From: Fibrobacter succinogenes subsp. succinogenes S85
GTDB taxonomy: Bacteria > Fibrobacterota > Fibrobacteria > Fibrobacterales > Fibrobacteraceae
DNA: 32,000 nucleotides
Direction of reading: 5' to 3'
Assembly (NCBI RefSeq): GCF_000146505.1
Contig: NC_017448.1
Span: 2,100,001 to 2,132,000 of the forward strand
Positions 2,467-15,987 of this stretch are shown piece after piece (positions within the stretch are counted from its first letter, which is position 1; each line of letters starts with the position of its first letter). The position numbers and the translations under genes were made by a program. The notes beneath the pieces were generated by a model. It saw only the letters and a program-made list of their open reading frames with translations. It was not told where the DNA came from and ran no database searches.

Positions 2467-3144
2467 TTATCGGACACAGCGCACGGAACGATAGTCCTCT
2501 TTCGCGAACGAATTTAAACTCGCCGCATCACTGCTGAATGACAAGAACAAATAGAACGCATTTGATTCTGGATTTTCAGGATCTTCAGTCGCACTCCAAA
2601 AATACGCATAACCGCCGATACCATTGAACTTGCCACCAGCAACAGCACCGTCATCCGCTTTTGAGACAGCACCGCGATAACCCGCCGGAAGCGCGTTGAA
2701 TCCGAAGTCATCCGTGCCGTTACCTTTTTTGAACCAACCATCGCGAGATTTCAACTTAGCACCAACCTTATTCGAGACAGCGCCGGAATCGCCATCGTGG
2801 GACTGCGCGAGGACTTGCGCAAAATCTTCATTCGTCGGGAGACGCCAGCCTTCAGGGCAAACCGTTTTTGCCTCCGCCCACGAATAAAGCCTCCCCAACC
2901 GCTTACAGTTGCGAGAATCGCCCTCCGGGCAAAAACTCCCCACTGTCTCAAAATTCAAATTCTCCGCCATCCATGTCAAATCGCCAATCTTAACAACATC
3001 ATAAGATTGCCCATCACGCGAATCCGTGAACGACTCCGAACATGACATGAGGAGGAAGGTTAAGGCGGCAAGAGCGAAAGAAGAATGGATAGTGAGATGC
3101 ATGGAGAGAATATAAATTTTCCATATTCGCAAATTTCTTTTCAT
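2467..3144 (-). CDS. lipoprotein with Fibrobacter succinogenes major paralogous domain (TIGR02145-like)
   Basis: Lipobox-like LLMSC after a hydrophobic stretch. Motifs DGQSYDVVKIGDLTWMAENLNF, RLYSWAEAKTVCPEGWRLPTNEDF, GFNALPAGYRG and YFWSATE. The start could instead be ATG 3100-3102 (MHLTIH...). Confidence 0.8.
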   Translation of the reverse strand: MKRNLRIWKIYILSMHLTIHSSFALAALTFLLMSCSESFTDSRDGQSYDVVKIGDLTWMAENLNFETVGSFCPEGDSRNCKRLGRLYSWAEAKTVCPEGWRLPTNEDFAQVLAQSHDGDSGAVSNKVGAKLKSRDGWFKKGNGTDDFGFNALPAGYRGAVSKADDGAVAGGKFNGIGGYAYFWSATEDPENPESNAFYLFLSFSSDAASLNSFAKEDYRSVRCVR

Positions 3145-3164
3145 CTCCTAAAAAAATGCTATTA

Positions 3165-4238
3165 TCACTTTTTCCTCTGTTTCTTTTTCATTTCCGCCAT
3201 AGTGCGGTCAACAACCTCTCGCAACTTATATGTAGCCACACCCAACGGTTTGTTGATGTCTTTAAGCGACCATTCCACAACAGTCTTATCTGTCGATTTG
3301 CAAATAATCAAACCCACAGAAGGATTATCGCCTTCACCCCGAAGCAACTCATCTGCGGCAGTCACATAAAAATTAAGTTTACCAGCAAATTCCGGAGTGT
3401 ACTTCACGACCTTGAGATCTATAATGACATACCTGTGCTGTGGAATAAAATAAAAAATCAAGTCCGGGAAAAATGCTTGCCCGCCAGGCATCCGAAATTC
3501 CATCTGACGCCCAACATAGGAAAATCCTTTGCCCAGCTCCAATAAAAACTGAGTAACGTTGGCAATAAGAGCATCTTCTAAATCACCTTCATCATACTTT
3601 TCTTTCATTTTCAGAAATTCAAAATGATAAGGATCCTTCAGAATTTCCTTTGCAAGTTTCTCCTGAGAGGATGTCAAAGTTTTTTTGAAATTGGTAACAG
3701 CGGTTCCCTTCGTTTGAAAAAGATTAGCATCTATATATGCATTTAAAGTGGGGCGCGACCAACCATTATCCACTACACCCTTGACATAAAACAGGGCCTC
3801 GTCTATTGATCGGCATCGAGAAACAATGTCTATATGTTGTCCCCACGGAATTTTACCAAAAGCCTTGGGCATTTCTAATTGGCCAACGGCCCGTTGGCCT
3901 TTTTTATTTCGCTCAAAATAGAACAAATACCACTGTTTCATATACTTCACATTCGTGAAAGAAAAACCAGTCTCATTAGGGAAAGAATGACGCATATCAA
4001 GCGCAAATTGTTTTACAACTCCAGCGCCCCAACGTTCTTCGGCTCGCAACGCAACTAAATCACGACCAATTCCCCAATATAACTCTAACATTTCGGTATT
4101 CACGCGAATGGAAGCTTTCACCTGGCTCTGGCGAAAACGGTTTTTAACATCGGACAACCATTCAACATAACTGCTATCAGCCAACATACCATCGCGAAAT
4201 ACAAACATCGGTTTACTCATAGACTCTTTCTTTTTCAT
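3165..4238 (-). CDS. DUF1016 / YhcG-like PD-(D/E)xK nuclease family protein
   Basis: N-terminal ...YVEWLSDVKNRFRQSQVKASIRVNTEMLELYWGIGRDL... and C-terminal nuclease core FFPDLIFYFIPQHRYVIIDLKVVKYTPEFAGKLNFYV (D...D-L-K). I place the start at ATG 4236-4238, which is preceded by GGGGAGG. The track ORF extends to 4361. Confidence 0.8.
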   Translation of the reverse strand: MKKKESMSKPMFVFRDGMLADSSYVEWLSDVKNRFRQSQVKASIRVNTEMLELYWGIGRDLVALRAEERWGAGVVKQFALDMRHSFPNETGFSFTNVKYMKQWYLFYFERNKKGQRAVGQLEMPKAFGKIPWGQHIDIVSRCRSIDEALFYVKGVVDNGWSRPTLNAYIDANLFQTKGTAVTNFKKTLTSSQEKLAKEILKDPYHFEFLKMKEKYDEGDLEDALIANVTQFLLELGKGFSYVGRQMEFRMPGGQAFFPDLIFYFIPQHRYVIIDLKVVKYTPEFAGKLNFYVTAADELLRGEGDNPSVGLIICKSTDKTVVEWSLKDINKPLGVATYKLREVVDRTMAEMKKKQRKK

Positions 4239-4239
4239 T

Positions 4240-4350
4240 TTAGACCTCCCCAATTTCTTCTTTCGAGAACCAGTTGCCCTTAATATCCAGCCATTCATAT
4301 TCATGGGGAAGAGAGAGCAAATTCCTGATAAGATCTTCGGATTTTGCCAT
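4240..4350 (-). pseudogene. 36-codon remnant resembling the N-terminus of an AlbA_2/Schlafen-type putative DNA-binding protein
   Basis: MAKSEDLIRNLLSLPHEYEWLDIKGNWFSKEEIGEV-stop, with a GGAGG RBS at 4355-4359. The pattern (E.EwLefK.n...eeIGe) matches how AlbA_2-domain proteins begin. The stop at 4240-4242 abuts the DUF1016 start. Confidence 0.35.
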
Positions 4351-5318: not shown

Positions 5319-5564
5319 TGCATTCTCCTTGATTGTATTTTTCAAAGTTTTATATTCACCTTTAAAATACGCTCATCGCCATGCAAGCGCAAGAGGTCGC
5401 GTTGTTGCCACGAAATGGGTATTGTAGCCTTGATGTTGTATTTTGTCGGGTTTTATGTTGCCAAACCCATTTTTCATCACCTGTTCTCTGGGCAATCTCT
5501 GGGCAATTTCAGCAAAAAATGTTTGAAGTATCTTTTTTGGGGCAGGCGGTAACAGTGACTAACT

Positions 5565-7493
5565 TCATTTTCCAAAATATTTCAAGCAGAATTCCTCATT
5601 CACTTTAACAACAATCATTATAAAAACTTTTAGGGTTTCAATATATGCCTGTTGCAGCTCTTCTTCTGATCCAAAGAAAGATCCATGCAGAAAGGTATTG
5701 CGCAAATCTAAGCTGTTTGAGAATTCTTTCTTGTTCAACACAAAATTATAGTAATCGCGTTCTTGGCGAGAAAATATAGTTGATTCAACTTCAACTTCTT
5801 CTTTTTCTACTAGCTCTTTTAATATTTCCTTTTGCTTACCCTTTTGATGAGCAAAACAAACAACCTCATTCTCATACAGGTTATATAAAAGAGAACATCT
5901 ATCGATATCTATCCCTAGACTATTATCGGCTTCTAAAAGTAAAGCCCCTCTTTCTATCAACCATTTTATCCAAACTCTTGCCTGCTCTGCAAAATCAGTT
6001 ATGAAAAGATGTTCTTTGGCAATTATCTCTACTAGAGAGTTATACCCGCTCCAAGCAAAGTTCATTCCAAACAACAGGTTAAAGGAAAAAAGGAACCGCA
6101 TTTCTTTTTTAAGACTTTCCCCTTTAACATAAGCATATTTCTGTTTTAAAAAACTCTTCAATTCTCCTATACGGACAGGATTAGAAGAAATAGCCACAAG
6201 TTCCTTATCAACGCAACCGTCTTCCATATAATATTTCAGTTGCTTAAGGATTCCGTCCATCTCAATATAAAGTAGTTTTATCCGTTCCGACAACGATACT
6301 GATTTTGACGGTTTCTTGAATTCAAAATCAGAAATACCAAAATTCTCTTTTAGATAATCACCAAAGAAATAATCAAACAAATCTTCAATGCAAATCCCGT
6401 AATTTTCAAGCTCTTCCTTATATGTAGATAAAATCTTATAGTAAATCATCCTATTTTTTGTAAATTGCGAGCGTATAGGATAATGCTTTATTCCCTCACT
6501 TTCTGCAAGCAATTCATCTATTATACTTTTCTTTTTCAATACAAATTGACAACGCAGTTCCGAATCAAAGAAACCAAACAGGAAAATAAAGTTATTAAGT
6601 AGTGTCGGGAAATCGTGATGTTCCCTTACCCATTTCTTGCTGTATGTGCAATAGACATGATGGTCTGTTTCATTATACGATTCATTCTTTTCTTCATCTA
6701 TTTCCTTGAACGAGGCAATGCATCCATAAGAAAAAGACGATCTTTCTGAAAAATGCTTTTCCCAATATTTCTCCTTGGCCTTTTTAGCCTTTAATCGCAG
6801 CCTATCATCAATATTAAGCCCCGGTATTATAGGAGCATTTTCTATCAATTCCAAATAGTTCGGATGCGGTTCAAACGCCCCATCAACATAATAATTAAGG
6901 ACGCTTATTTTCTTTTCTTCGGTCAAAACCTTGGGAAATACGATGCTTTCTTTTTCTGCAAAATCTTTTACCAAGTAGTATTTGATGATTATTTCAGCAG
7001 CATCCTTATTGTCCATCATATAATCAGTTATTACCTGATTGTATTTTTTCACCCATCCTTTACATTCTAAGATACAAAACAAGGGAATCAACTTTTTATT
7101 TAGCAGATTTTGAACGCCGGAATTGGGAATGTTTTTCAACAAGTCAAAACGTTCTAATAATTTCAGCAGGTCTAACGAATAATATGTCCATATGCTCTGG
7201 AAAATATTTTCAATATCGCTTAAATCCAGTTGCTGAAAATAAGAAGAAACAAAACGGGATATCGCATCCGTTTCCTTTCTATACTCATTAAATTTTTCAG
7301 GCGTAATATTTGTTGGGCAATCAATGGACTTTACAATCTGAACGATGTTTGATAATTCTATAACTTGATTTAGGTCATAATTATTTGATGAATCAAAGGA
7401 ATCCAAAATGGGTATTGCCCTTTGGAACATGTGGTACTGATGTAGCACCGAGCGTTTATTGAATGTTATATGCTCAAGGAAATCTTTGGTCAT
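5565..7493 (-). CDS. large hypothetical protein (642 aa) with C-terminal HEPN-like R-N-x-x-x-H motif
   Basis: Uninterrupted 1929-nt ORF in very AT-rich DNA. The C-terminus is ...FSRQERDYYNFVLNKKEFSNSLDLRNTFLHGSFFGSEEELQQAYIETLKVFIMIVVKVNEEF. R598 is encoded at 5700-5702 and H603 at 5685-5687. I saw no Walker A motif, and the first ~560 aa are unassigned. Confidence 0.75.
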   Translation of the reverse strand: MTKDFLEHITFNKRSVLHQYHMFQRAIPILDSFDSSNNYDLNQVIELSNIVQIVKSIDCPTNITPEKFNEYRKETDAISRFVSSYFQQLDLSDIENIFQSIWTYYSLDLLKLLERFDLLKNIPNSGVQNLLNKKLIPLFCILECKGWVKKYNQVITDYMMDNKDAAEIIIKYYLVKDFAEKESIVFPKVLTEEKKISVLNYYVDGAFEPHPNYLELIENAPIIPGLNIDDRLRLKAKKAKEKYWEKHFSERSSFSYGCIASFKEIDEEKNESYNETDHHVYCTYSKKWVREHHDFPTLLNNFIFLFGFFDSELRCQFVLKKKSIIDELLAESEGIKHYPIRSQFTKNRMIYYKILSTYKEELENYGICIEDLFDYFFGDYLKENFGISDFEFKKPSKSVSLSERIKLLYIEMDGILKQLKYYMEDGCVDKELVAISSNPVRIGELKSFLKQKYAYVKGESLKKEMRFLFSFNLLFGMNFAWSGYNSLVEIIAKEHLFITDFAEQARVWIKWLIERGALLLEADNSLGIDIDRCSLLYNLYENEVVCFAHQKGKQKEILKELVEKEEVEVESTIFSRQERDYYNFVLNKKEFSNSLDLRNTFLHGSFFGSEEELQQAYIETLKVFIMIVVKVNEEFCLKYFGK

Positions 7494-7504
7494 TTATATA
7501 TGAG

Positions 7505-8071
7505 TCAATACAGGTTTTTATTTCGAACTTTTTTGTACTTGATTCCTTTTTCAGTTCTTTCTGCACTAAATTCAGAAATATCATCTGAACTAATGAAATC
7601 TATATAGTTCAACCAATCTTTCATTGTCACATGATATAAGCATTTATCACAATTTTCATCCGAAGAAACGCAAAATCCTTCAATACTCTTGTCGTCATTG
7701 TAAGTCAATTCAAAAATTACAGAATGTATCAGCCTATTACAAACATCTGTACCCTGTTTTGTTTGCCTTCTAGACGATTCCCAATTATGACTATCTTCGG
7801 AAATCCAATGATGCATATTATCAAAATACTTTTTAGATTCAAATATTTCCACTTTCAGTGCATAACAATCTGCTTCATCACTCAATTTAGTCTTACAATC
7901 CACCAATTTTCGAATTACAAACGCGGAATAGAAAATACTTTTCTCTAGAATTGAATAAGCATTATCCGAATCATCATCGTCATTTTGAAAATATTTTGAT
8001 GAACCATATTCAATTATTTTATCACGATAAGATAACAAATCTTCTTTCCATGGACCTGATTCAAAAATCAT
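7505..8071 (-). CDS. hypothetical protein (188 aa)
   Basis: ATG 8069-8071 is preceded by GGGAG (8079-8083). The track ORF starts at GTG 8119. The stop lies 11 nt before the 642-aa gene. It contains FYSAFVIRKLVDC and VCNRLIHSVIF (N-x-x-x-H without the Arg). No family recognised. Confidence 0.6.
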   Translation of the reverse strand: MIFESGPWKEDLLSYRDKIIEYGSSKYFQNDDDDSDNAYSILEKSIFYSAFVIRKLVDCKTKLSDEADCYALKVEIFESKKYFDNMHHWISEDSHNWESSRRQTKQGTDVCNRLIHSVIFELTYNDDKSIEGFCVSSDENCDKCLYHVTMKDWLNYIDFISSDDISEFSAERTEKGIKYKKVRNKNLY

Positions 8072-8181
8072 AATTAAACTCCCAAATGCTTTACTTTCGT
8101 CCGCTTGTTTCTTGCCCACAATTTCGGCGACTCTCGTTCAAAAAAATTATTTCCAAAGAGTCCTAGGGATAATTAAGCACT

Positions 8182-8220
8182 AATTTGGACACTTTGCTTA
8201 GCAAGGTGTCCAAATTTTTT
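8182..8220. terminator. 11-bp perfect stem-loop in the 173-nt gap between the two gene pairs
   Basis: AATTTGGACAC (8182-8192), a 13-nt loop, then GTGTCCAAATT (8206-8216). The T-run (8215-8220) follows the stem on the plus strand. On the minus strand an A-run precedes it, so its function as a minus-strand terminator is uncertain. Confidence 0.35.
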
Positions 8221-8244: not shown

Positions 8245-8766
8245 TCAATATGACCTAATATAACTTATAAAAGGATCCATCAAAGCGTAAAGACTAGAAA
8301 AATCAAGGATTCTCCCATTTCGCAGAACCCAGTAACGACCATGAGCCAGCCAGTGCCTATATTTAAAGACTCGTTTAATTTCGCTCATATACCCATTTCT
8401 GTAGGCACCTACATTTTGCCATGTAGACAATATATGTTCTTCTAGACTTGCTTTACGAGGATCTGGAAGACCCAAAGATCTCATAGCTCGCGATACTGGA
8501 TCTTTTAATTTTTTCCCCAATCGATTAAGATAATCAACTCTGCAAGACGCTTCTACGCAAGATAGCAAATCTAATGAAAAAAGCTTCTCCAATTCATCCC
8601 TACTTTCGTCAAATTCCTGTTCAAATTCCTGCCTAGTATAGGAAATAAATCTTGGATTAGTCGTCTGATAATAATCGTTAAGTGCATCCATTGAAACTTG
8701 GTATTTTTCTCTCACATACGCGAGAGACACGTTCTGATTAGAAAAACTAACGCTAATCCTGGCCAT
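8245..8766 (-). CDS. hypothetical protein (173 aa) with HEPN-like Rx4H motif
   Basis: ...EIKRVFKYRHWLAHGRYWVLRNG..., with R137 at 8356-8358 and H142 at 8341-8343. The start ATG 8764-8766 overlaps the upstream gene by 14 nt. Confidence 0.65.
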   Translation of the reverse strand: MARISVSFSNQNVSLAYVREKYQVSMDALNDYYQTTNPRFISYTRQEFEQEFDESRDELEKLFSLDLLSCVEASCRVDYLNRLGKKLKDPVSRAMRSLGLPDPRKASLEEHILSTWQNVGAYRNGYMSEIKRVFKYRHWLAHGRYWVLRNGRILDFSSLYALMDPFISYIRSY

Positions 8767-9268
8767 TTACAAGTTCCATAATAACATTTTGGATGCTATC
8801 TTCAGTAACGTCAATAAAATTTCTGTTATCGGGTGCAACAAAACGCCAAACCCACTGATCTTCAGGAGCAGTACCATTGTTTAAATCAGAAGGAATTTTT
8901 CCTTGTATAGAGAAATTTTTTCTCATTAAAATGATTTTCGCAAAACCCTTTGGACCTTCCATTCTTACGCGACCTTTAGAAGCGATAAGCATCGTTCCTT
9001 CAGGTTTTAACTGTATATGGATTGTATTTAGTTTTAAAGTGAGCCGAGGGACTTCGTATGTGCCAAGAGATTCCTCATTTATTTGAATGTTGTCTCTTTC
9101 AACTTGAATTTGTCCATTTTTCACATAGGGAAGCAACGATCCTTCAAAAATACTGTACAATTGATTAAGATAACTTCTATACTCCTCAATCTCTTTCTGA
9201 GGATCAAATTTTACCTCTGGATCCCCTTTTTGCGCATTGAGTTCATTTAAAAATTTTGCAAAATTCAT
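8753..9268 (-). CDS. hypothetical protein (171 aa), first gene after hsdS
   Basis: ATG 9266-9268 is preceded by AAGGAG (9274-9279). The track ORF starts further upstream at 9313. The protein reads MNFAKFLNELNAQKGDPEVKFDPQKEIEEYRSYLNQLY...LKPEGTMLIASKGRVRMEGPKGF... No family recognised. Confidence 0.6.
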   Translation of the reverse strand: MNFAKFLNELNAQKGDPEVKFDPQKEIEEYRSYLNQLYSIFEGSLLPYVKNGQIQVERDNIQINEESLGTYEVPRLTLKLNTIHIQLKPEGTMLIASKGRVRMEGPKGFAKIILMRKNFSIQGKIPSDLNNGTAPEDQWVWRFVAPDNRNFIDVTEDSIQNVIMELVNGQD

Positions 9269-9349
9269 TTTGACTCCTTTTTTATAATTTAGTTTTTTCT
9301 GATTTTCGTTCATTCATACACATTTTAACAACCATTTTTTCTAAAAATA

Positions 9350-10576
9350 TCAAACACTAATTTCGCCATTCATGATTTTGGGGAGTAGCCGATTGCGGGA
9401 TTCCGCTGCTAATTGAATTTGATCTTCCAACTTTTCAATTTTGGAAATCATAGAAGCAAATACATTATCGTACATTTCAACAATACTTTTTTCAGGGCAA
9501 AGAACTTCTATATCCGCCATATTTTCGGGTCTTAAATGAAGAACATTCGCTCCGTTTGCGAGAGGAGAAATTTTATAACTTAATCCCCCAAATCGGCATT
9601 GAGCGTAAAAAAATGTTTTGGAAATTGTTTTGGGCAATATTTTTAACAGGTCCATTGTGAAAATAGCACATTCTTTTAAATTAGGTATTAACGCGACATG
9701 TCCTACCAAACGACGTTCTTTCGTCATATCAGTACATCCCATGACCAAGTCGCCGGACTCTAAAATTCCGTTTTCTTTGTACTTACCTGTAAATCGTTTT
9801 TCCGCATTGCGCTTATAACCACCAAAAGCGTTGATGTTTTTTAGATTAACCAACAAAACGCCTTCGTTATCACTTAATTCATTTGATGTGTAAGAAGTTC
9901 CACGAACGTAATCCACAACATCACCAAGTTTCTCTTTCCACCATCCCTGAGGCAGTCCATCAACGATGGGGGTGGTTTCGTAGCCGGGGAATTTAAGGTC
10001 GATGAACCATTGTTTGTAGAGGCGTTGGGCGGCTTCTTCGAGGAGTTTGATTTGCTTCTGGTTGTTTTCAATCAGATCATCGTATGCGGAAAGGATGTCG
10101 GCTATTCGTTTTTGAGTTTCTTTATTAGGAATATTTATTTCCATATTCCTTAACGCAGTCAAGCTCACGGTTCTCTGAGCAGCACCAACAGCAACAGCAT
10201 CCGCCATCATATAAAAATCATTACTCAGCATCTTGTAATACAAGTATCGCGAATAAATTTTTGATTCGTCAGGACGCAAAATTGCAATATGCCGCTGAAA
10301 TACAAAGGGACTATCGTCTTTTATAAATACAGGCTTTCCAAAAGATCCAACAACAGAATAAAGAATATCATTTACTTTTGGTTTTCTTTTTTCATCAAGA
10401 GAATCATAATACTCTTGCGGAACAAACATCGTATTAGTAAAATCAAATTGATTCGCAGAAGTTATATTCGATATCGTTACAAACGGAATACCACAATCAG
10501 CTTTGGGTGGTGGCAAATGATCTCCATCCGCGATTGAAACGCATACATCTCCTAATTTCACTTTTTCCCAAGCCAT
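9350..10576 (-). CDS. hsdS: type I restriction-modification specificity subunit
   Basis: Two-TRD layout with the conserved central helix ADILSAYDDLIENNQKQIKLLEEAAQRLYKQWFIDLKFPGYE and the C-terminal helix IEKLEDQIQLAAESRNRLLPKIMNGE. Confidence 0.9.
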   Translation of the reverse strand: MAWEKVKLGDVCVSIADGDHLPPPKADCGIPFVTISNITSANQFDFTNTMFVPQEYYDSLDEKRKPKVNDILYSVVGSFGKPVFIKDDSPFVFQRHIAILRPDESKIYSRYLYYKMLSNDFYMMADAVAVGAAQRTVSLTALRNMEINIPNKETQKRIADILSAYDDLIENNQKQIKLLEEAAQRLYKQWFIDLKFPGYETTPIVDGLPQGWWKEKLGDVVDYVRGTSYTSNELSDNEGVLLVNLKNINAFGGYKRNAEKRFTGKYKENGILESGDLVMGCTDMTKERRLVGHVALIPNLKECAIFTMDLLKILPKTISKTFFYAQCRFGGLSYKISPLANGANVLHLRPENMADIEVLCPEKSIVEMYDNVFASMISKIEKLEDQIQLAAESRNRLLPKIMNGEISV

Positions 10577-10718: not shown

Positions 10719-12593
10719 TCATATCCCCAACTCCTTCATGTTCTTGGAGATGGTTTTCATGAGCGTGTTACTTTCGTCCTGGAGTTTCAGGAGTTCTTCG
10801 TGGATTTCATGCATGCGTTCGGCAAAGTCCACGCCGTCATCTTCAACGGGGGCAACGCCTACATAGGCTCCGGGAGTAAGGCTAAAGTTCTTTTCAGCAA
10901 TTTCGGCACGGGTTGCGATTTTGCAAAGACCAAGAATGTCCTTGTATTTTCCGTCACCGAACTTTTCATAGAGCCAATCGGCTTCTTTCGCCACATTCAA
11001 GATTTCATCAAATTCTGCAAGACGCGTGTCCCATTCTTCCTGAGTCTTTTTCTTGCTCTTCTTATCGGCAGCATCTACAGATGCTTTTGCTTCGGCTCGA
11101 AGCGTTTCGCGATATTCCTTGAGCAATTCTACTTGCTTTGCAATCTTGGATGTCTTGCGGAGAATCTTTTCAAGGTTGGCATCATCGGTTTCATCGGCGT
11201 AAGAAAGAAGCGTTGTGCGGTATTCTGCAAGCAAGCTTTGATACTTGTCAAGTTCTCCACGATAAAGCCATACAATAGCGTTCAAGTTTTTCAGTTGCCA
11301 TTCGCTCCATTCATTCAAGGTGCGATCCACAACAGTGTAGTAATTGCGGGCATCAATAAAAAGAACTTTGTCCTTAATATTCTTCTTTTTGCACTTGTCA
11401 AAGAACCACAGGGTGCAAGGCAAACTCTTGGTGTAAAAGAAGTTGTTGCCAACGCTTATCATGCAGTCCACATGACCTGTCGCCACGAGTTTTTCGCGGA
11501 TATCTTTGTCCTTGCTCTGACTATCCGTCGCAGAGGCTGCCATCACAAAGCCCGCACGACCTTTTTCGTTCAGGTAGCTATAGAAATAAGAAATCCAAAG
11601 GTAGTTGCCATTGCCGATTTCTTTATCCTTGTTGACGGCAGGCAAACCAAACGGCAGTCGCCCCGCACTTTGACAACTTTCTGCCTTAACCTTATCCACA
11701 TTGAACGGTGGATTCGCCATCACATAATCGCACTGCCCCGTCAAATTATGTGCATCGTGATAGAAGGAGTTCGCTTCGTCGCCAGACTTGACAACTCCGG
11801 TAAGGCCATGCACAGCCATGTTCATCAAGCAAAGTTGAGCATTGTATTCCACCTTTTCTTGGCCGTAAAAAGTCATAGTCTCGTTGCTAGCCATCCCGGC
11901 AGCATTCACAAAATCACCCGTCTGCACGAACATGCCACCACTTCCGCAAGCAGGATCCAAAAGCACACCATACGAAGGTTCTAGCACATTCACAATCATC
12001 TTCACCAATGATTTCGGGGTAAAGAAAACTCCGTCATCACTAGCAATATTCTTCGCAAACTTACTGAGGAAGTATTCGTAAATACGACCCATTACATCGC
12101 CGCCCACATCATCCAACGCATTGTTGTTGAAAGTGCGTAAAAGTTCAGCGAGAAGATTATCCTTAAAGTCGGTGTAGGTCTTAGGCAATACGCCCTTCAA
12201 TTTTTCGCTTTGAGCCTCGACTAGTTCCATGGCGTTATTCACCACTTCGCCAAGGCTGTTGAGCGGCTGACCATGCACATTCTTGAGTTTGGCAGAAGCA
12301 ATGTTCGCAGGCAAATTCACCAAATAATCAAACTGGGCTTCTTTGGGGAGGAACAAGGCGCTCTTCGAAACAAAGTCACTCGCCTCGATGGGGAGAACGC
12401 GACCGCCTCGACTCGGGCGATTTTTCAACAGTTCGGCTTCAACCTTTTTGAAGCGCCCATAGGCATAACGCAAAAACAACAGACCCAAAACAGGCATACA
12501 ATATTGATTCGAAGTCAACTTGGAATCGGCACGGAGTAAATCCGCAGATTCCCACAAATCCGCCTCAAGTTTCTTTAAGCTCTTATTATCCAT
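10719..12593 (-). CDS. hsdM: type I restriction-modification N6-adenine DNA methyltransferase subunit
   Basis: HsdM_N-like start MDNKSLKKLEADLWESADLLR, SAM motif LLDPACGSGGMF, catalytic NPPF (VMANPPFNV), and a long coiled C-terminal extension ending ...FSLTPGAYVG... Confidence 0.92.
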   Translation of the reverse strand: MDNKSLKKLEADLWESADLLRADSKLTSNQYCMPVLGLLFLRYAYGRFKKVEAELLKNRPSRGGRVLPIEASDFVSKSALFLPKEAQFDYLVNLPANIASAKLKNVHGQPLNSLGEVVNNAMELVEAQSEKLKGVLPKTYTDFKDNLLAELLRTFNNNALDDVGGDVMGRIYEYFLSKFAKNIASDDGVFFTPKSLVKMIVNVLEPSYGVLLDPACGSGGMFVQTGDFVNAAGMASNETMTFYGQEKVEYNAQLCLMNMAVHGLTGVVKSGDEANSFYHDAHNLTGQCDYVMANPPFNVDKVKAESCQSAGRLPFGLPAVNKDKEIGNGNYLWISYFYSYLNEKGRAGFVMAASATDSQSKDKDIREKLVATGHVDCMISVGNNFFYTKSLPCTLWFFDKCKKKNIKDKVLFIDARNYYTVVDRTLNEWSEWQLKNLNAIVWLYRGELDKYQSLLAEYRTTLLSYADETDDANLEKILRKTSKIAKQVELLKEYRETLRAEAKASVDAADKKSKKKTQEEWDTRLAEFDEILNVAKEADWLYEKFGDGKYKDILGLCKIATRAEIAEKNFSLTPGAYVGVAPVEDDGVDFAERMHEIHEELLKLQDESNTLMKTISKNMKELGI

Positions 12594-12624: not shown

Positions 12625-15600
12625 TTACGCAACTTTGTAGTGGGTATAAACATACTCGTAAATACGCTGGCGGTATTCCGAAATAGAGAGCTCATCAAAG
12701 CTTTCAGGGAGTTCGCTCCATAGCGTATCGCGAATCAAGTTATCGACAGCAGCCTTTGTTTCTTGTTTGTCCGTCCAATGGTCAAATTCAGCAATTTTTG
12801 CTTTAACCTTTTGGAGCAAATCTACAGCCACTTCCTTAATCTTTTTAATGTCCTGCTTACTCAAATCATCTTTGAAGAGCATGTCGTAAAGCGAAAGTTC
12901 TTCGTCGTTCTTGAAGCCCTCACGTACATAGCGCTGTTCTTCCTCATTCATGCTTGCCGCAAGGTTCATCAAGTCCATGAATGTTTTTTCAATCGTTGCA
13001 CGATCCTGTTCGCTGTTGTAAGCCTCAATAATTTCGCGATAGCGGTCGTAATAATTGATGCGGAATGGATTCTGTGCAAGCATCACAGCCAAGCGATCCT
13101 TTATCAATTCTTCCAAATCGCGGAATAACAAATTTTGTCGTTTTGCCTTCGCAAATTCACGACGCAACAAATCAAAATCGATCTTGCTAATGTCGAATTG
13201 TTTAGACTTTTTCTTGTCATTCTTAACGACATCAACATACTCGTTCATAATCTGGTTCAGCTGAACCATCAAATCCACATTTGTCACATGGCGACGTTTA
13301 GTTTTCAAGTCGCGGGCAACCGCATCAATCGCTTTAAACTTCGCACGAATTTCACTTGTCACATCGTCGCGATTCGTGTATTTCATCAATCGCACAAGTT
13401 CTGCGGCATACGTGCTAAAAGTTTTCTTGTTTTCGAGCGTAGAGCAAACCGCATTTTCAACATCCTTGATTGCTGCAAGCTTATCAAAATTCTTAGACTC
13501 GATTATGCTCTTTAAATTCGCGTTGCAACCATCCAAGAAACTTTCTGCTTTAGCGACCACTTCCACAATGCGTTTTAAAAGCTCTTCTTTATCAATGGTA
13601 GGATCGTTACCGGAACCAGAAACCTTATTCGTGTAATCCGCAAGAGCCTTACGCAAAGCCTTCACAATACCTGCATAATCCACAATCAAGCCGTTGCTTT
13701 TGCCCTCATTCACACGATTTGCGCGGGCAATTGTTTGCATGAGAGTATGAGCCTTTAACAACTTGTCCAAATAAAGGCAACTAAGGCTCTTTACATCAAA
13801 ACCGGTAAGCCACATCGCACAGACAAAGACTATACGGAACTTGCTATTAGAATCCTTGAATTCCTTGTCAAGTTCGCGTTTTTCCATTTTCTTCCGATGC
13901 GGAACAATATCCAAGCCCCATTTTGCAAATGTCTGCTGTTCGTTCTGTTCGTCACTCACGACAACAGCCATCTCGGTTTCACGCATCCACTGGATTTTGC
14001 GATTCAGTTCTTGAGCCTCTTGCTGTGTAGCCTGCTTGCAAATAGATTCGAGGTTCTTGATTTCTTCTGCCCAATATTCCTGGGCGAAATTGAACATTCG
14101 AACACACGTGACCTTGTTTAGGCAAACAAACATTGCCTTTCCGCTAGTCCAAAGGTCGGAATAATGTTTGACAAAATCCTTTGCGACAGCACGCAAGCGG
14201 GGTTCAGCCGTAAGCAGGTGATATTCCTTAGCAAAATCCCTTTCCAGCTTTTCTTGGGCATCTGGGTCAAGGTCTGCTTTTTCGATGGCATCCAAAATCT
14301 TGTCCGAGATTTCAGGATTCTTTAGTTCCTTGATTTTATCGGCACGGTTTTCGTAATAGAGAGGGACCGTCGCACCATCTTCTACAGCACGCTTAAAATC
14401 GTAAATCGAAATGTAGCCGCCGAATGTGCGTTCGGTAATATTGTCGTCTTTTAAAAGCGGAGTACCCGTAAAGCCCAAACGAGAGGCATCGGGCAACAAG
14501 TTGCACATGTTTTCCGCAAAAATTCCGTTCTGGCTACGGTGTGCTTCATCCGACAAAATCAAAATATCATGATCAGGATGAATCGGCTCCAAATCCTTCT
14601 TGTTGAACTTTTGGATCAGCGTAAAGATGTAACTCGGATTAGCCTTTAGTTTTTTAATAAGGTCATTTCCGCTTGTAGCGATAAACTTGGATGCTTTTAC
14701 ACCGCCAAGCATTTTGCAATTTTCAAAAGTTTCACTGATTTGCTTGTTCAGTTCATCGCGATCGGTTAACACGACAATTGTCGGGGAACCGTCCGTACGG
14801 CGGCGAATTTTCTGCGAAAGGAAAAGCATCGAATAGCTTTTACCGCTCCCCTGCGTATGCCAAAACACACCAAGTTTACCTTTACGGAGTTTGCGGTTCT
14901 TATAAGCTTCAAAAGCCTCGTTCACGCCAAGATACTGATGATTCCTGGCAAGGATTTTTACCGTATGGCCATCGCTGTGGTCATAAAGGATAAAGTTTTC
15001 AAGCAAATCAATAAAGGTTTCTTTTCGGCAAATACCCTTGAGCATCGTAGCAAGAGCCACTGAACCAGCGTCGTCTTCTTTAAGGCGTTTCCATTCATGG
15101 AAAAATTCAAACTTGCTTCCGAGCGTTCCCACTTTTGCCTCAAAACCATTTGAGAGCATCAAGAAAGCATTGTAGTAGAACAGCTGCGGAATAGTCGACA
15201 GGTAATCGGTATAATTATCGTCGTAAGCATTTTGCACCGCCACATCGTTACGCTTGAGTTCGACAAACAAAAGCGGAATACCATTTACAAAACCAACAAT
15301 ATCCGTACGACGATGGTACAACTCGCCATGAATCTTCATCTCTTTCACGGCAAGGAAATCATTATTTGACGGATTGTTGAAATCAACTATCAACGCACGC
15401 TTTTCATCGACTTGGCCGTTCGGCTTTTTTATCGTCACCGGAATGCCATCGCGGATGAATCCGTACTTTTCTTCGTTGATTTGCAGAAGCGAAGAAGTGC
15501 TAAGCGTCGCTGTAAATTTTTGAACAGCCTCTTCAATCTGATTTTGGTTTATCCAAGGGTTCAATTTTTGAAGAGCTGCCTTAAAATAGCGAAGCAAAAG

Positions 15601-15747
15601 GACTTCGCGATACGACTTTCGCCCAAATGTGCCATTATCCCCAAGAACCTCAATATTATAGGCGAAAACAACACGCCAACCCAGCTCTTGCAGCAGGTTT
15701 CCGGCGCTCTCTTGAACAAGAATGTTTTCGCTATATTCGTAGGACAT
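12625..15747 (-). CDS. hsdR: type I restriction endonuclease/helicase subunit
   Basis: PD-(D/E)xK core (TDIVGFVNGIPLLFVELKRN), Walker A HTQGSGKS and DEAH box LILSDEAHRSQ. I place the start at ATG 15745-15747 (MSYEYSENILVQE...). The track ORF starts at TTG 15804. Confidence 0.92.
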   Translation of the reverse strand: MSYEYSENILVQESAGNLLQELGWRVVFAYNIEVLGDNGTFGRKSYREVLLLRYFKAALQKLNPWINQNQIEEAVQKFTATLSTSSLLQINEEKYGFIRDGIPVTIKKPNGQVDEKRALIVDFNNPSNNDFLAVKEMKIHGELYHRRTDIVGFVNGIPLLFVELKRNDVAVQNAYDDNYTDYLSTIPQLFYYNAFLMLSNGFEAKVGTLGSKFEFFHEWKRLKEDDAGSVALATMLKGICRKETFIDLLENFILYDHSDGHTVKILARNHQYLGVNEAFEAYKNRKLRKGKLGVFWHTQGSGKSYSMLFLSQKIRRRTDGSPTIVVLTDRDELNKQISETFENCKMLGGVKASKFIATSGNDLIKKLKANPSYIFTLIQKFNKKDLEPIHPDHDILILSDEAHRSQNGIFAENMCNLLPDASRLGFTGTPLLKDDNITERTFGGYISIYDFKRAVEDGATVPLYYENRADKIKELKNPEISDKILDAIEKADLDPDAQEKLERDFAKEYHLLTAEPRLRAVAKDFVKHYSDLWTSGKAMFVCLNKVTCVRMFNFAQEYWAEEIKNLESICKQATQQEAQELNRKIQWMRETEMAVVVSDEQNEQQTFAKWGLDIVPHRKKMEKRELDKEFKDSNSKFRIVFVCAMWLTGFDVKSLSCLYLDKLLKAHTLMQTIARANRVNEGKSNGLIVDYAGIVKALRKALADYTNKVSGSGNDPTIDKEELLKRIVEVVAKAESFLDGCNANLKSIIESKNFDKLAAIKDVENAVCSTLENKKTFSTYAAELVRLMKYTNRDDVTSEIRAKFKAIDAVARDLKTKRRHVTNVDLMVQLNQIMNEYVDVVKNDKKKSKQFDISKIDFDLLRREFAKAKRQNLLFRDLEELIKDRLAVMLAQNPFRINYYDRYREIIEAYNSEQDRATIEKTFMDLMNLAASMNEEEQRYVREGFKNDEELSLYDMLFKDDLSKQDIKKIKEVAVDLLQKVKAKIAEFDHWTDKQETKAAVDNLIRDTLWSELPESFDELSISEYRQRIYEYVYTHYKVA

Positions 15748-15767
15748 AATAATGGGCTTTTTTTGTA

Positions 15768-15797
15768 AATATAGCCTATTTTTATGCCAAATTACAA
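15768..15797 (-). promoter_or_regulatory. possible sigma70-type promoter for hsdR
   Basis: Read on the minus strand: TTGTAA (15792-15797), an 18-nt spacer, then TATATT (15768-15773), about 20 nt upstream of the hsdR ATG. This is a pattern match only. Confidence 0.3.
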
Positions 15798-15987
15798 CAA
15801 ACAAAAAGATTTAAAAGGTCAAAAGTCGAAACATTAAACCAAAGGGAATGCACAACAGTGCGTGGGTTGTTCGTACTACAAAAAACATTAATTTGGTAAT
15901 GCTTTCAGCGGACTTTAGCGAAAAATTCCCCAAATGTCACATTCTGTCACCGCAATAATTTAAATTGAATTTTGATTGTTTTAGTCT

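Follow-up and report, generated by a model that had tools for sequence, protein, structure and literature searches.

A HEPN-like protein and its overlapping partner gene form a widespread two-gene module that adjoins a type I restriction-modification operon in Fibrobacter succinogenes

What is a pair of small overlapping genes doing directly behind a type I restriction-modification operon, and does it belong to that operon at all? The question arises from a 32,000-nt stretch of the genome of Fibrobacter succinogenes subsp. succinogenes S85 (RefSeq assembly GCF_000146505.1, contig NC_017448.1, positions 2,100,001 to 2,132,000), referred to here as the window, in which the S-subunit gene hsdS is followed by gene A, encoding a 171-aa protein, and gene B, encoding a 173-aa all-helical HEPN-like protein. 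The two genes are a conserved pair, the product of gene B carries HEPN-type motifs and the partner encoded by gene A has no known relatives; we hold these structural facts with high confidence. Our reading of what the pair does is more guarded. It is probably a self-contained, mobile module of a HEPN toxin and a protein antitoxin or immunity protein, serving in abortive-infection defence or in the addiction of cells to a plasmid or prophage. The RNase activity, the toxicity, the neutralization by direct binding and the trigger are steps that we infer.

Both genes lie on the minus strand and are real genes, not chance open reading frames (ORFs), because each has many homologues and each is under purifying selection. 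Gene A (product P0001) reads from 9268 to 8753, and its ATG (9266-9268) is preceded at a distance of 5 nt by the ribosome-binding site AAGGAG (9274-9279, minus strand), a motif that is also kept in close relatives. An alternative upstream ATG at 9313 would lengthen the protein to 186 aa; the 171-aa start is preferred because the homologues and the ribosome-binding site support it. Gene B (product P0002) reads from 8766 to 8245. It starts at an ATG (8764-8766) within gene A, the stop codon of which is at 8753-8755, so that the two genes overlap by 14 nt (8753-8766, minus strand). An earlier note on this DNA, which was made from the letters alone, had pointed to this overlap and to a strong ribosome-binding site for the upstream gene, and the coordinates of the window bear out both. 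The relatives of the window have an overlap of 8 nt (AATGGCTAG/A), and the junction of the two genes is nearly always of the form A-ATG-NNT-AR, which explains both why A has a conserved ...NG* end and why B starts with MA/MS.... The longer overlap of the window is due to a change of TAG to CAG, by which two residues, QD, were added. The ratio of nonsynonymous to synonymous substitution rates (dN/dS) is 0.29-0.36 for gene A and 0.11-0.17 for gene B, so the partner evolves faster while both remain under purifying selection. The calculated isoelectric points are 5.2 for P0001 and 9.0 for P0002, with family medians of 5.3 (acidic) and 7.9 (neutral to basic), respectively. An acidic upstream partner coupled translationally to a more basic downstream HEPN protein is the canonical antitoxin-toxin layout.

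The two genes of the pair are found together with great constancy. A scan for relatives of gene B that was restricted to one genome per species gave 171 loci, and the 80 that were retrieved span about 15 phyla, their hosts belonging to the Gamma-, Alpha- and Betaproteobacteria, Cyanobacteria, Desulfobacterota, Acidobacteriota, Bacteroidota, Latescibacterota, Gemmatimonadota, Spirochaetota, Chloroflexota, Deinococcota, Planctomycetota, Chlorobiota and Bacillota. A homologue of gene A overlaps the start of gene B in all 82 HEPN-seeded loci that have upstream DNA (metagenome loci and the window counted), and even the upstream ORFs of distant loci match gene A with phmmer E values of 1e-10 to 1e-31. 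Pairwise distances of A and of B, compared across 72 loci, are correlated with a Mantel r of 0.84, a value reached by none of 2000 permutations. Both genes are likewise present in ten of ten loci from IMG/VR and in the one plasmid record inspected in detail. The surroundings, by comparison, are not constant: among the 131 immediate neighbors of 66 loci there is no recurrent family, the largest shared one having three members. A and B are a self-contained unit with no third component, and the generic layout of a type II toxin-antitoxin (TA) module, namely a small bicistronic operon with translational coupling, mobility and partner-specific pairing, is found here in full. A three-gene system that would include the 204-aa gene downstream of gene B was considered and rejected; the near-identical locus L003 (96%) is the only one that shares this gene with the window, and the gene is missing from the next relative, L110, and from distant loci.

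Two side observations concern the evolution of the pair itself. When positions 8245-9268 of the window are compared with positions 5499-6522 of the close relative L001, the synonymous divergence (dS) is 0.37 for the partner and 0.13 for the HEPN gene, a three-fold difference that hints at recombination within the module or at replacement of the partner among close lineages. In one protein of 297 aa from the representative library (P0201), a full partner continues in the same reading frame into the N-terminal half of the HEPN protein, stopping short of the Rx4H motif; a frameshift, decay of the copy or a sequencing artefact may account for it, and it is not a reliable fusion.

The case for regarding the product of gene B as a HEPN protein is built from several observations that point in one direction. 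The HEPN domain has been described as a four-helix up-down bundle that has an insert separating helices 2 and 3 and carries an Rx4-6H motif with a polar residue (N, D or H) immediately after the arginine and, upstream in helix 2, a further acidic residue that is conserved, usually in the form Ex3[KR] (Anantharaman et al. 2013, PMC3710099). More than 249 homologues of gene B are present in a collection clustered at 90%, and the core motif of the family is YRHWLAHGRYW. In the window the Rx4H motif reads R137-H-W-L-A-H142 (codons at 8341-8358, minus strand), with the polar H138 next to R137, and it forms the C-terminal end of a predicted helix that spans residues 124-142. The upstream motif is E72-A-S-C-R76 (codons at 8539-8553, minus strand), and both E72 and R76 fall in the long helix predicted for residues 45-85. 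Across an alignment of 106 sequences E72, R82, S92, W116, R137, W139, L140, A141, G143 and R144 are invariant, and conservation is at least 90% for R76, D78, Y79, H138, H142, Y145 and W146. The AlphaFold2 model is all-helical, with a mean predicted local distance difference test score (pLDDT) of 89.8 and a predicted template modeling score (pTM) of 0.86; its helices comprise residues 15-32, 45-85, the short segments 90-97 and 108-119, 124-142, which ends exactly at H142, and 156-172, and residues 143-155 form a loop. This arrangement agrees with the HEPN fold with helical inserts between the motif helices, as judged from the order of secondary-structure elements alone.

Comparison of the model with the PDB by Foldseek places HEPN toxins at the top (7ae8, 7ae6, 7ae9, 6m6u, 5yep and 2hsb, together with the Csm6 structure 5fsh), although the best scores, with E about 0.5, probability up to 0.75 and template modeling (TM) scores of 0.38-0.43, are not significant. 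When the family was aligned by hhalign with 12 bona fide PF18735 members from related genomes, the E value was 0.023 and E72, W116 and RHWLAH lined up with their counterparts; one of 150 column-shuffled controls reached this score. Pfam gives a faint match to HEPN_MAE_28990 (PF18737) over the motif region (E 0.084), the only hit that gene B received in searches of Pfam, NCBIfam, PHROGs, PADLOC and PDB sequences. None of 38 homologues scanned one by one in Pfam matches PF18735 at E<=0.1, a genome-wide search for PF18735 found no match in the genome of the window, the corresponding search for PF18737 found only one member in the phylum, and the B-family profile has no match among PDB sequences. 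Two homologues carry the UniRef label 'RiboL-PSP-HEPN domain-containing'. Because the Pfam thresholds are not passed, gene B is best described, from its sequence, as a putative unclassified HEPN family close to the PF18735/PF18737 clade and not as a member of it. The earlier note had proposed a HEPN-like fold and had made its case depend on conservation of RHWLAH among homologues. The peptides that it quoted are found in the proteins, RHWLAH corresponding to R137-H142; the motif is invariant or nearly so across the 106 homologues, and the all-helical model and its closest PDB neighbors agree with the proposed fold, though below significance.

The partner, for its part, is conserved but has no known relatives. 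A word-based search returned only three close homologues of gene A, a result that reflects the limited sensitivity of that method, since the ORFs upstream of distant B loci are clearly homologous to it. A profile search of 1.84 billion representatives retrieved 2,663 clusters at E<=1e-3 and 1,497 at E<=1e-10, so that the family comprises at least 1,497 clusters at 50% identity, almost all of its members being stand-alone proteins of 165-190 aa. Positions E65, Y71, P89, G99, R100 and W141 are invariant, and G69, G91, D102 and a PP motif are further conserved. The AlphaFold2 model (pLDDT 88.4, pTM 0.78) begins with an N-terminal helical hairpin, which is followed by a five-strand meander sheet, a variable loop of low confidence, two strands and a C-terminal helix. 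Searches with this model by Foldseek against the PDB and BFVD gave no significant match (best E 0.1-0.8, TM <0.3), and an NTF2-like or START-like fold, which had been considered, was rejected, no such entries being among those matches. Sequence searches of Pfam, NCBIfam, PHROGs, PADLOC and the PDB with gene A returned nothing. No nucleotidyltransferase or other known signature was found when 63 partner homologues were scanned in Pfam, and helix-turn-helix, ribbon-helix-helix and AbrB families were not detected in the same 63 sequences. PADLOC v2 gave no match better than E 1e-4 for 38 HEPN and 63 partner sequences. Every named cluster that was looked up in NCBI and UniRef, bar the two B homologues mentioned above, labels A or B 'hypothetical' or 'uncharacterised', and our searches of the literature and of family libraries gave no description of the pair or of the partner. 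The suggestion of the earlier note that this is a HEPN module with a new type of partner has held up, because the partner shows neither the signature nor the fold of a nucleotidyltransferase or of any other known kind and is strictly co-conserved with the HEPN gene.

The distribution of the pair is that of a mobile element. Within the genus of the window it occurs in one of 101 species genomes, as a single copy, and its stretch is AT-rich, with 32-40% GC compared with about 50% in the flanks. Intact pairs are carried by 18 plasmids in PLSDB, mostly ColE1-type plasmids of 3.7-4.7 kb from Klebsiella and Raoultella. On the 4.65-kb plasmid that was inspected the pair is the largest annotated cargo and lies beside the replication and Rop genes. 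The pair is the main cargo of these common small plasmids. One of the 18 records, NZ_CP135071.1 (locus L109, positions 511-1621), has an A 40% identical and a B 30% identical to those of the window. Both genes of the Klebsiella plasmid pair are annotated 'hypothetical protein', and their products occur on hundreds of contigs. Ten viral contigs in IMG/VR carry an intact pair whose neighbors include CI-like repressors, CII-like activators, terminase subunits and tail proteins; no match to the pair was found in deposited phage genomes.

The manner in which the pair decays, which is what one would anticipate were B to do harm in the absence of A, is suggestive only. A metagenome search seeded with a tight alignment of 12 A sequences gave 80 loci, in 69 of which B lies downstream; five have no room for it and six have an intact partner followed by a mere stub of B. 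The stub loci represent four independent cases (L133, L153/L180, L155/L157 and L198) in which only the first 10-16 codons of B are left, and they look like orphan antitoxins, with assembly chimeras as a possible alternative. The converse situation, an intact B without its partner, was found in none of the 76 B-seeded loci with room for one; the only locus that lacks the partner, L065, has a B that is N-terminally truncated as well. This asymmetry has a Fisher p of 0.014, or of 0.055 if independent cases are counted.

These observations can be accommodated by a simple scheme. Gene B would be a small HEPN RNase, probably dimeric by analogy with other HEPN toxins, in which R137 and H142 together with E72 and R76 would form a metal-independent active site. 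Gene A would encode its cognate neutralizer, an acidic alpha+beta protein that binds the RNase and keeps it inactive. The overlap of the two genes, 8 nt in most loci and 14 nt in the window, would couple their translation such that B is made only together with A. If A were lost, degraded or titrated, free B would be expected to cleave cellular or phage RNA and thereby arrest growth, and phage infection could act as a trigger, as could loss of the plasmid or prophage that carries the pair. Rfam gave no credible candidate for an RNA in the role of a type III antitoxin. We also put forward, tentatively, a bolder possibility, in which the partner is an active switch of new fold, for example a sensor of phage proteins or an enzyme, set over the HEPN RNase, and the pair a widespread and unrecognized abortive-infection or plasmid-addiction system.

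Several points weigh against a toxin with a protein antitoxin. A DNA-binding domain is usual in classic type II antitoxins, and the partner has neither a recognizable one nor a structural analogue. The similarity of gene B to known HEPN families stays below significance in each single test. The decay test is prone to ascertainment, since each set was seeded on the intact motif of one partner, the numbers are small and the metagenome contigs in the set may be chimeric. Only a part of the neighboring genes are defence genes (AbiP2/DRT, PtuA, DpdF, PsyrT and methyltransferases), others being housekeeping genes such as those for tRNA synthetases and histidine biosynthesis. The lack of a detectable DNA-binding domain would fit a defence system of two components, both needed for function, with the partner as sensor, activator or co-effector and B alone remaining inert as long as A has detected no phage cue. 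In size the partner equals the effector, its model is globular and well folded, it has conserved polar residues of its own (E65, Y71, R100, D102 and W141), it evolves faster than the HEPN protein, as expected for a sensor that faces phage, and the pair is found in prophages and defence islands. However, the asymmetric decay fits neutralization better than co-dependence, and the coupled order of an acidic upstream and a basic downstream protein is that of canonical antitoxin-toxin pairs, so we consider this explanation rather unlikely. It is more improbable still, in our judgment quite remote, that the partner is an enzymatic antitoxin of the type VII kind that chemically modifies the HEPN protein, or the RNA substrate or product of the latter. 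There is a precedent in HEPN-MNT pairs (MNT, minimal nucleotidyltransferase), whose toxin is neutralized by AMPylation and two of whose structures, 7ae8 and 6m6u, are among the top fold matches of B, and the KGRVD-type motif of the partner contains invariant polar residues. Those conserved residues may nevertheless be purely structural, and neither a nucleotidyltransferase or other enzyme signature in the 63 partners nor an enzyme fold match was found.

The position of the pair in the window invites a different explanation, namely that it is an accessory of the adjacent restriction-modification system in the manner of PrrC or RloC, the Hsd complex holding the HEPN protein latent and releasing it when a phage disables restriction. 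The type I operon lies upstream on the same strand and comprises hsdR (12625-15804), hsdM (10719-12593) and hsdS (9350-10576), all minus; it is context and not part of the module. Gene A begins 81 nt past the end of hsdS, in the same orientation and with no predicted terminator between them, so that co-transcription of the pair with hsdS appears possible in the window. A scan for sigma-70 promoters, which may not suit this host, gave a lower number of sites than shuffled sequence did, with none of them upstream of gene A. HEPN genes embedded in restriction-modification loci are well known (PMC3710099), a fact that we count in favor of this explanation, and the same arrangement is seen in loci L001-L004. 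It is found, however, only in the window and these close relatives, whose B is 96% identical; the five are one ancestral locus, because they share the 3′ end of hsdS, the spacer, the downstream hairpin and, in L003, the 204-aa gene. The nearest outgroup, L110, with a B 79% identical, has no hsdS upstream, and a single S subunit occurs among the 131 flanking genes of the 66 other loci. The pair stands alone on plasmids of about 4.6 kb, and gene B has no ABC-ATPase domain. Since the hsdS linkage is local to one lineage, a PrrC-like dependence on the restriction-modification complex is unlikely, the adjacency would be incidental to the module, and we give the accessory explanation very little credence. 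The placement directly after hsdS that the earlier note had named is thus correct for this locus, 81 nt separating the two, yet it is a feature of one lineage and not of the module. Equally hard to credit is a pair without any role in conflict, be it a housekeeping pair for RNA processing or regulation, or a HEPN-like scaffold without catalytic activity. The housekeeping genes among its neighbors could be cited for such a role; the extremely patchy spread, in one of 101 genomes of the genus yet in about 15 phyla, the carriage on plasmids and prophages and the invariance of the catalytic-type motif speak against it.

If the pair is taken as a HEPN toxin with a protein antitoxin or immunity protein, it belongs to a known kind of system, HEPN toxins with adjacent neutralizers, of which this family pair, and especially its partner, has not previously been described. 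The closest parallel in organization is HEPN-MNT (HepT-MntA, type VII; 7ae8, 6m6u, 5yep), likewise a mobile and patchily distributed module with a small stand-alone Rx4H HEPN protein encoded downstream of, and overlapping, the gene of its partner, and its toxins match gene B best in structure, though weakly. In contrast to MntA, gene A is not a minimal nucleotidyltransferase, having neither the GSxxxG/DxD motif nor a Pfam match in any of 63 partners nor a fold match, and gene B differs from HepT in its longer N-terminal helix and inserts and in the motif RHWLAHGRYW in place of Rx4HxY. At the level of sequence the closest relatives of B are RiboL-PSP-HEPN (PF18735) and MAE_28990 (PF18737), of the AbiD/AbiF-related clade of Anantharaman et al. 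2013. These have R-N-x-x-x-H where B has R-H-W-L-A-H, and they have been described with L-PSP fusions or in ParB operons, not with a partner of the gene A type. PrrC and RloC share with our pair a HEPN RNase, in our pair a predicted one, in or beside hsdRMS and the idea of a second-line suicide defence that targets RNA; gene B, unlike them, is a protein of 173 aa without an ABC ATPase, has a protein partner of its own and is linked to restriction-modification in one lineage only. RnlA-RnlB/LsoA-LsoB, AbiV and AbiF combine, as is proposed for the pair, a HEPN RNase toxin with a dedicated, family-specific inhibitor; they act against phage and reside on plasmids or prophages. RnlA, however, is a larger multidomain protein with a small antitoxin encoded downstream, and the antitoxins of AbiV and AbiF are RNAs, whereas here the partner is a protein of about 170 aa under purifying selection and no RNA family was detected.

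Few effectors of prokaryotic conflict systems are in as wide use as HEPN RNases, and the mode by which they are silenced defines each system. If the pair is a TA or abortive-infection module, it would add a new antitoxin or immunity fold, it would explain the main cargo of very common cryptic Klebsiella plasmids of 4-5 kb, and it would offer a compact two-gene system that is directly testable. An incidental adjacency to a restriction-modification operon also matters for inference of the 'guilt-by-embedding' kind.

The remaining features concern the surroundings of the pair. A hairpin with 17-bp arms (8182-8216, not assigned to a strand) lies 29 nt 3′ of the gene B stop; it has a T-run on the plus strand only and is conserved in the close relatives L001-L003. 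A 20-nt direct repeat of 80% identity was noticed at the borders of the pair (8172-8191 and 9349-9368), one copy overlapping the hsdS stop. It was considered as an insertion scar and set aside as probably due to chance, the repeat not being conserved in L001-L003. Downstream of gene B are the 204-aa gene (7505-8119, minus strand), which has no family assignment, a PADLOC PDC-S56 candidate (5565-7493) and a DUF1016/YhcG nuclease gene. The 204-aa gene has a counterpart of 96% identity at the equivalent position of L003; there, a 410-aa gene, a KAP NTPase and PIN7 come after it in place of PDC-S56. Because L003 and the window differ there, the genes 3′ of the 204-aa gene have been swapped between strains. 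In L001 a gene for an AAA_14/DUF4143 ATPase (2796-4277) is inserted between hsdM and hsdS of an otherwise homologous operon. In another lineage, that of L006-L008, a gene for a 646-aa Peptidase_C14 (caspase-like) protein lies directly 3′ of the pair in the same orientation (6597-8537 in L006), and nSTAND ATPase genes are found near the pair.

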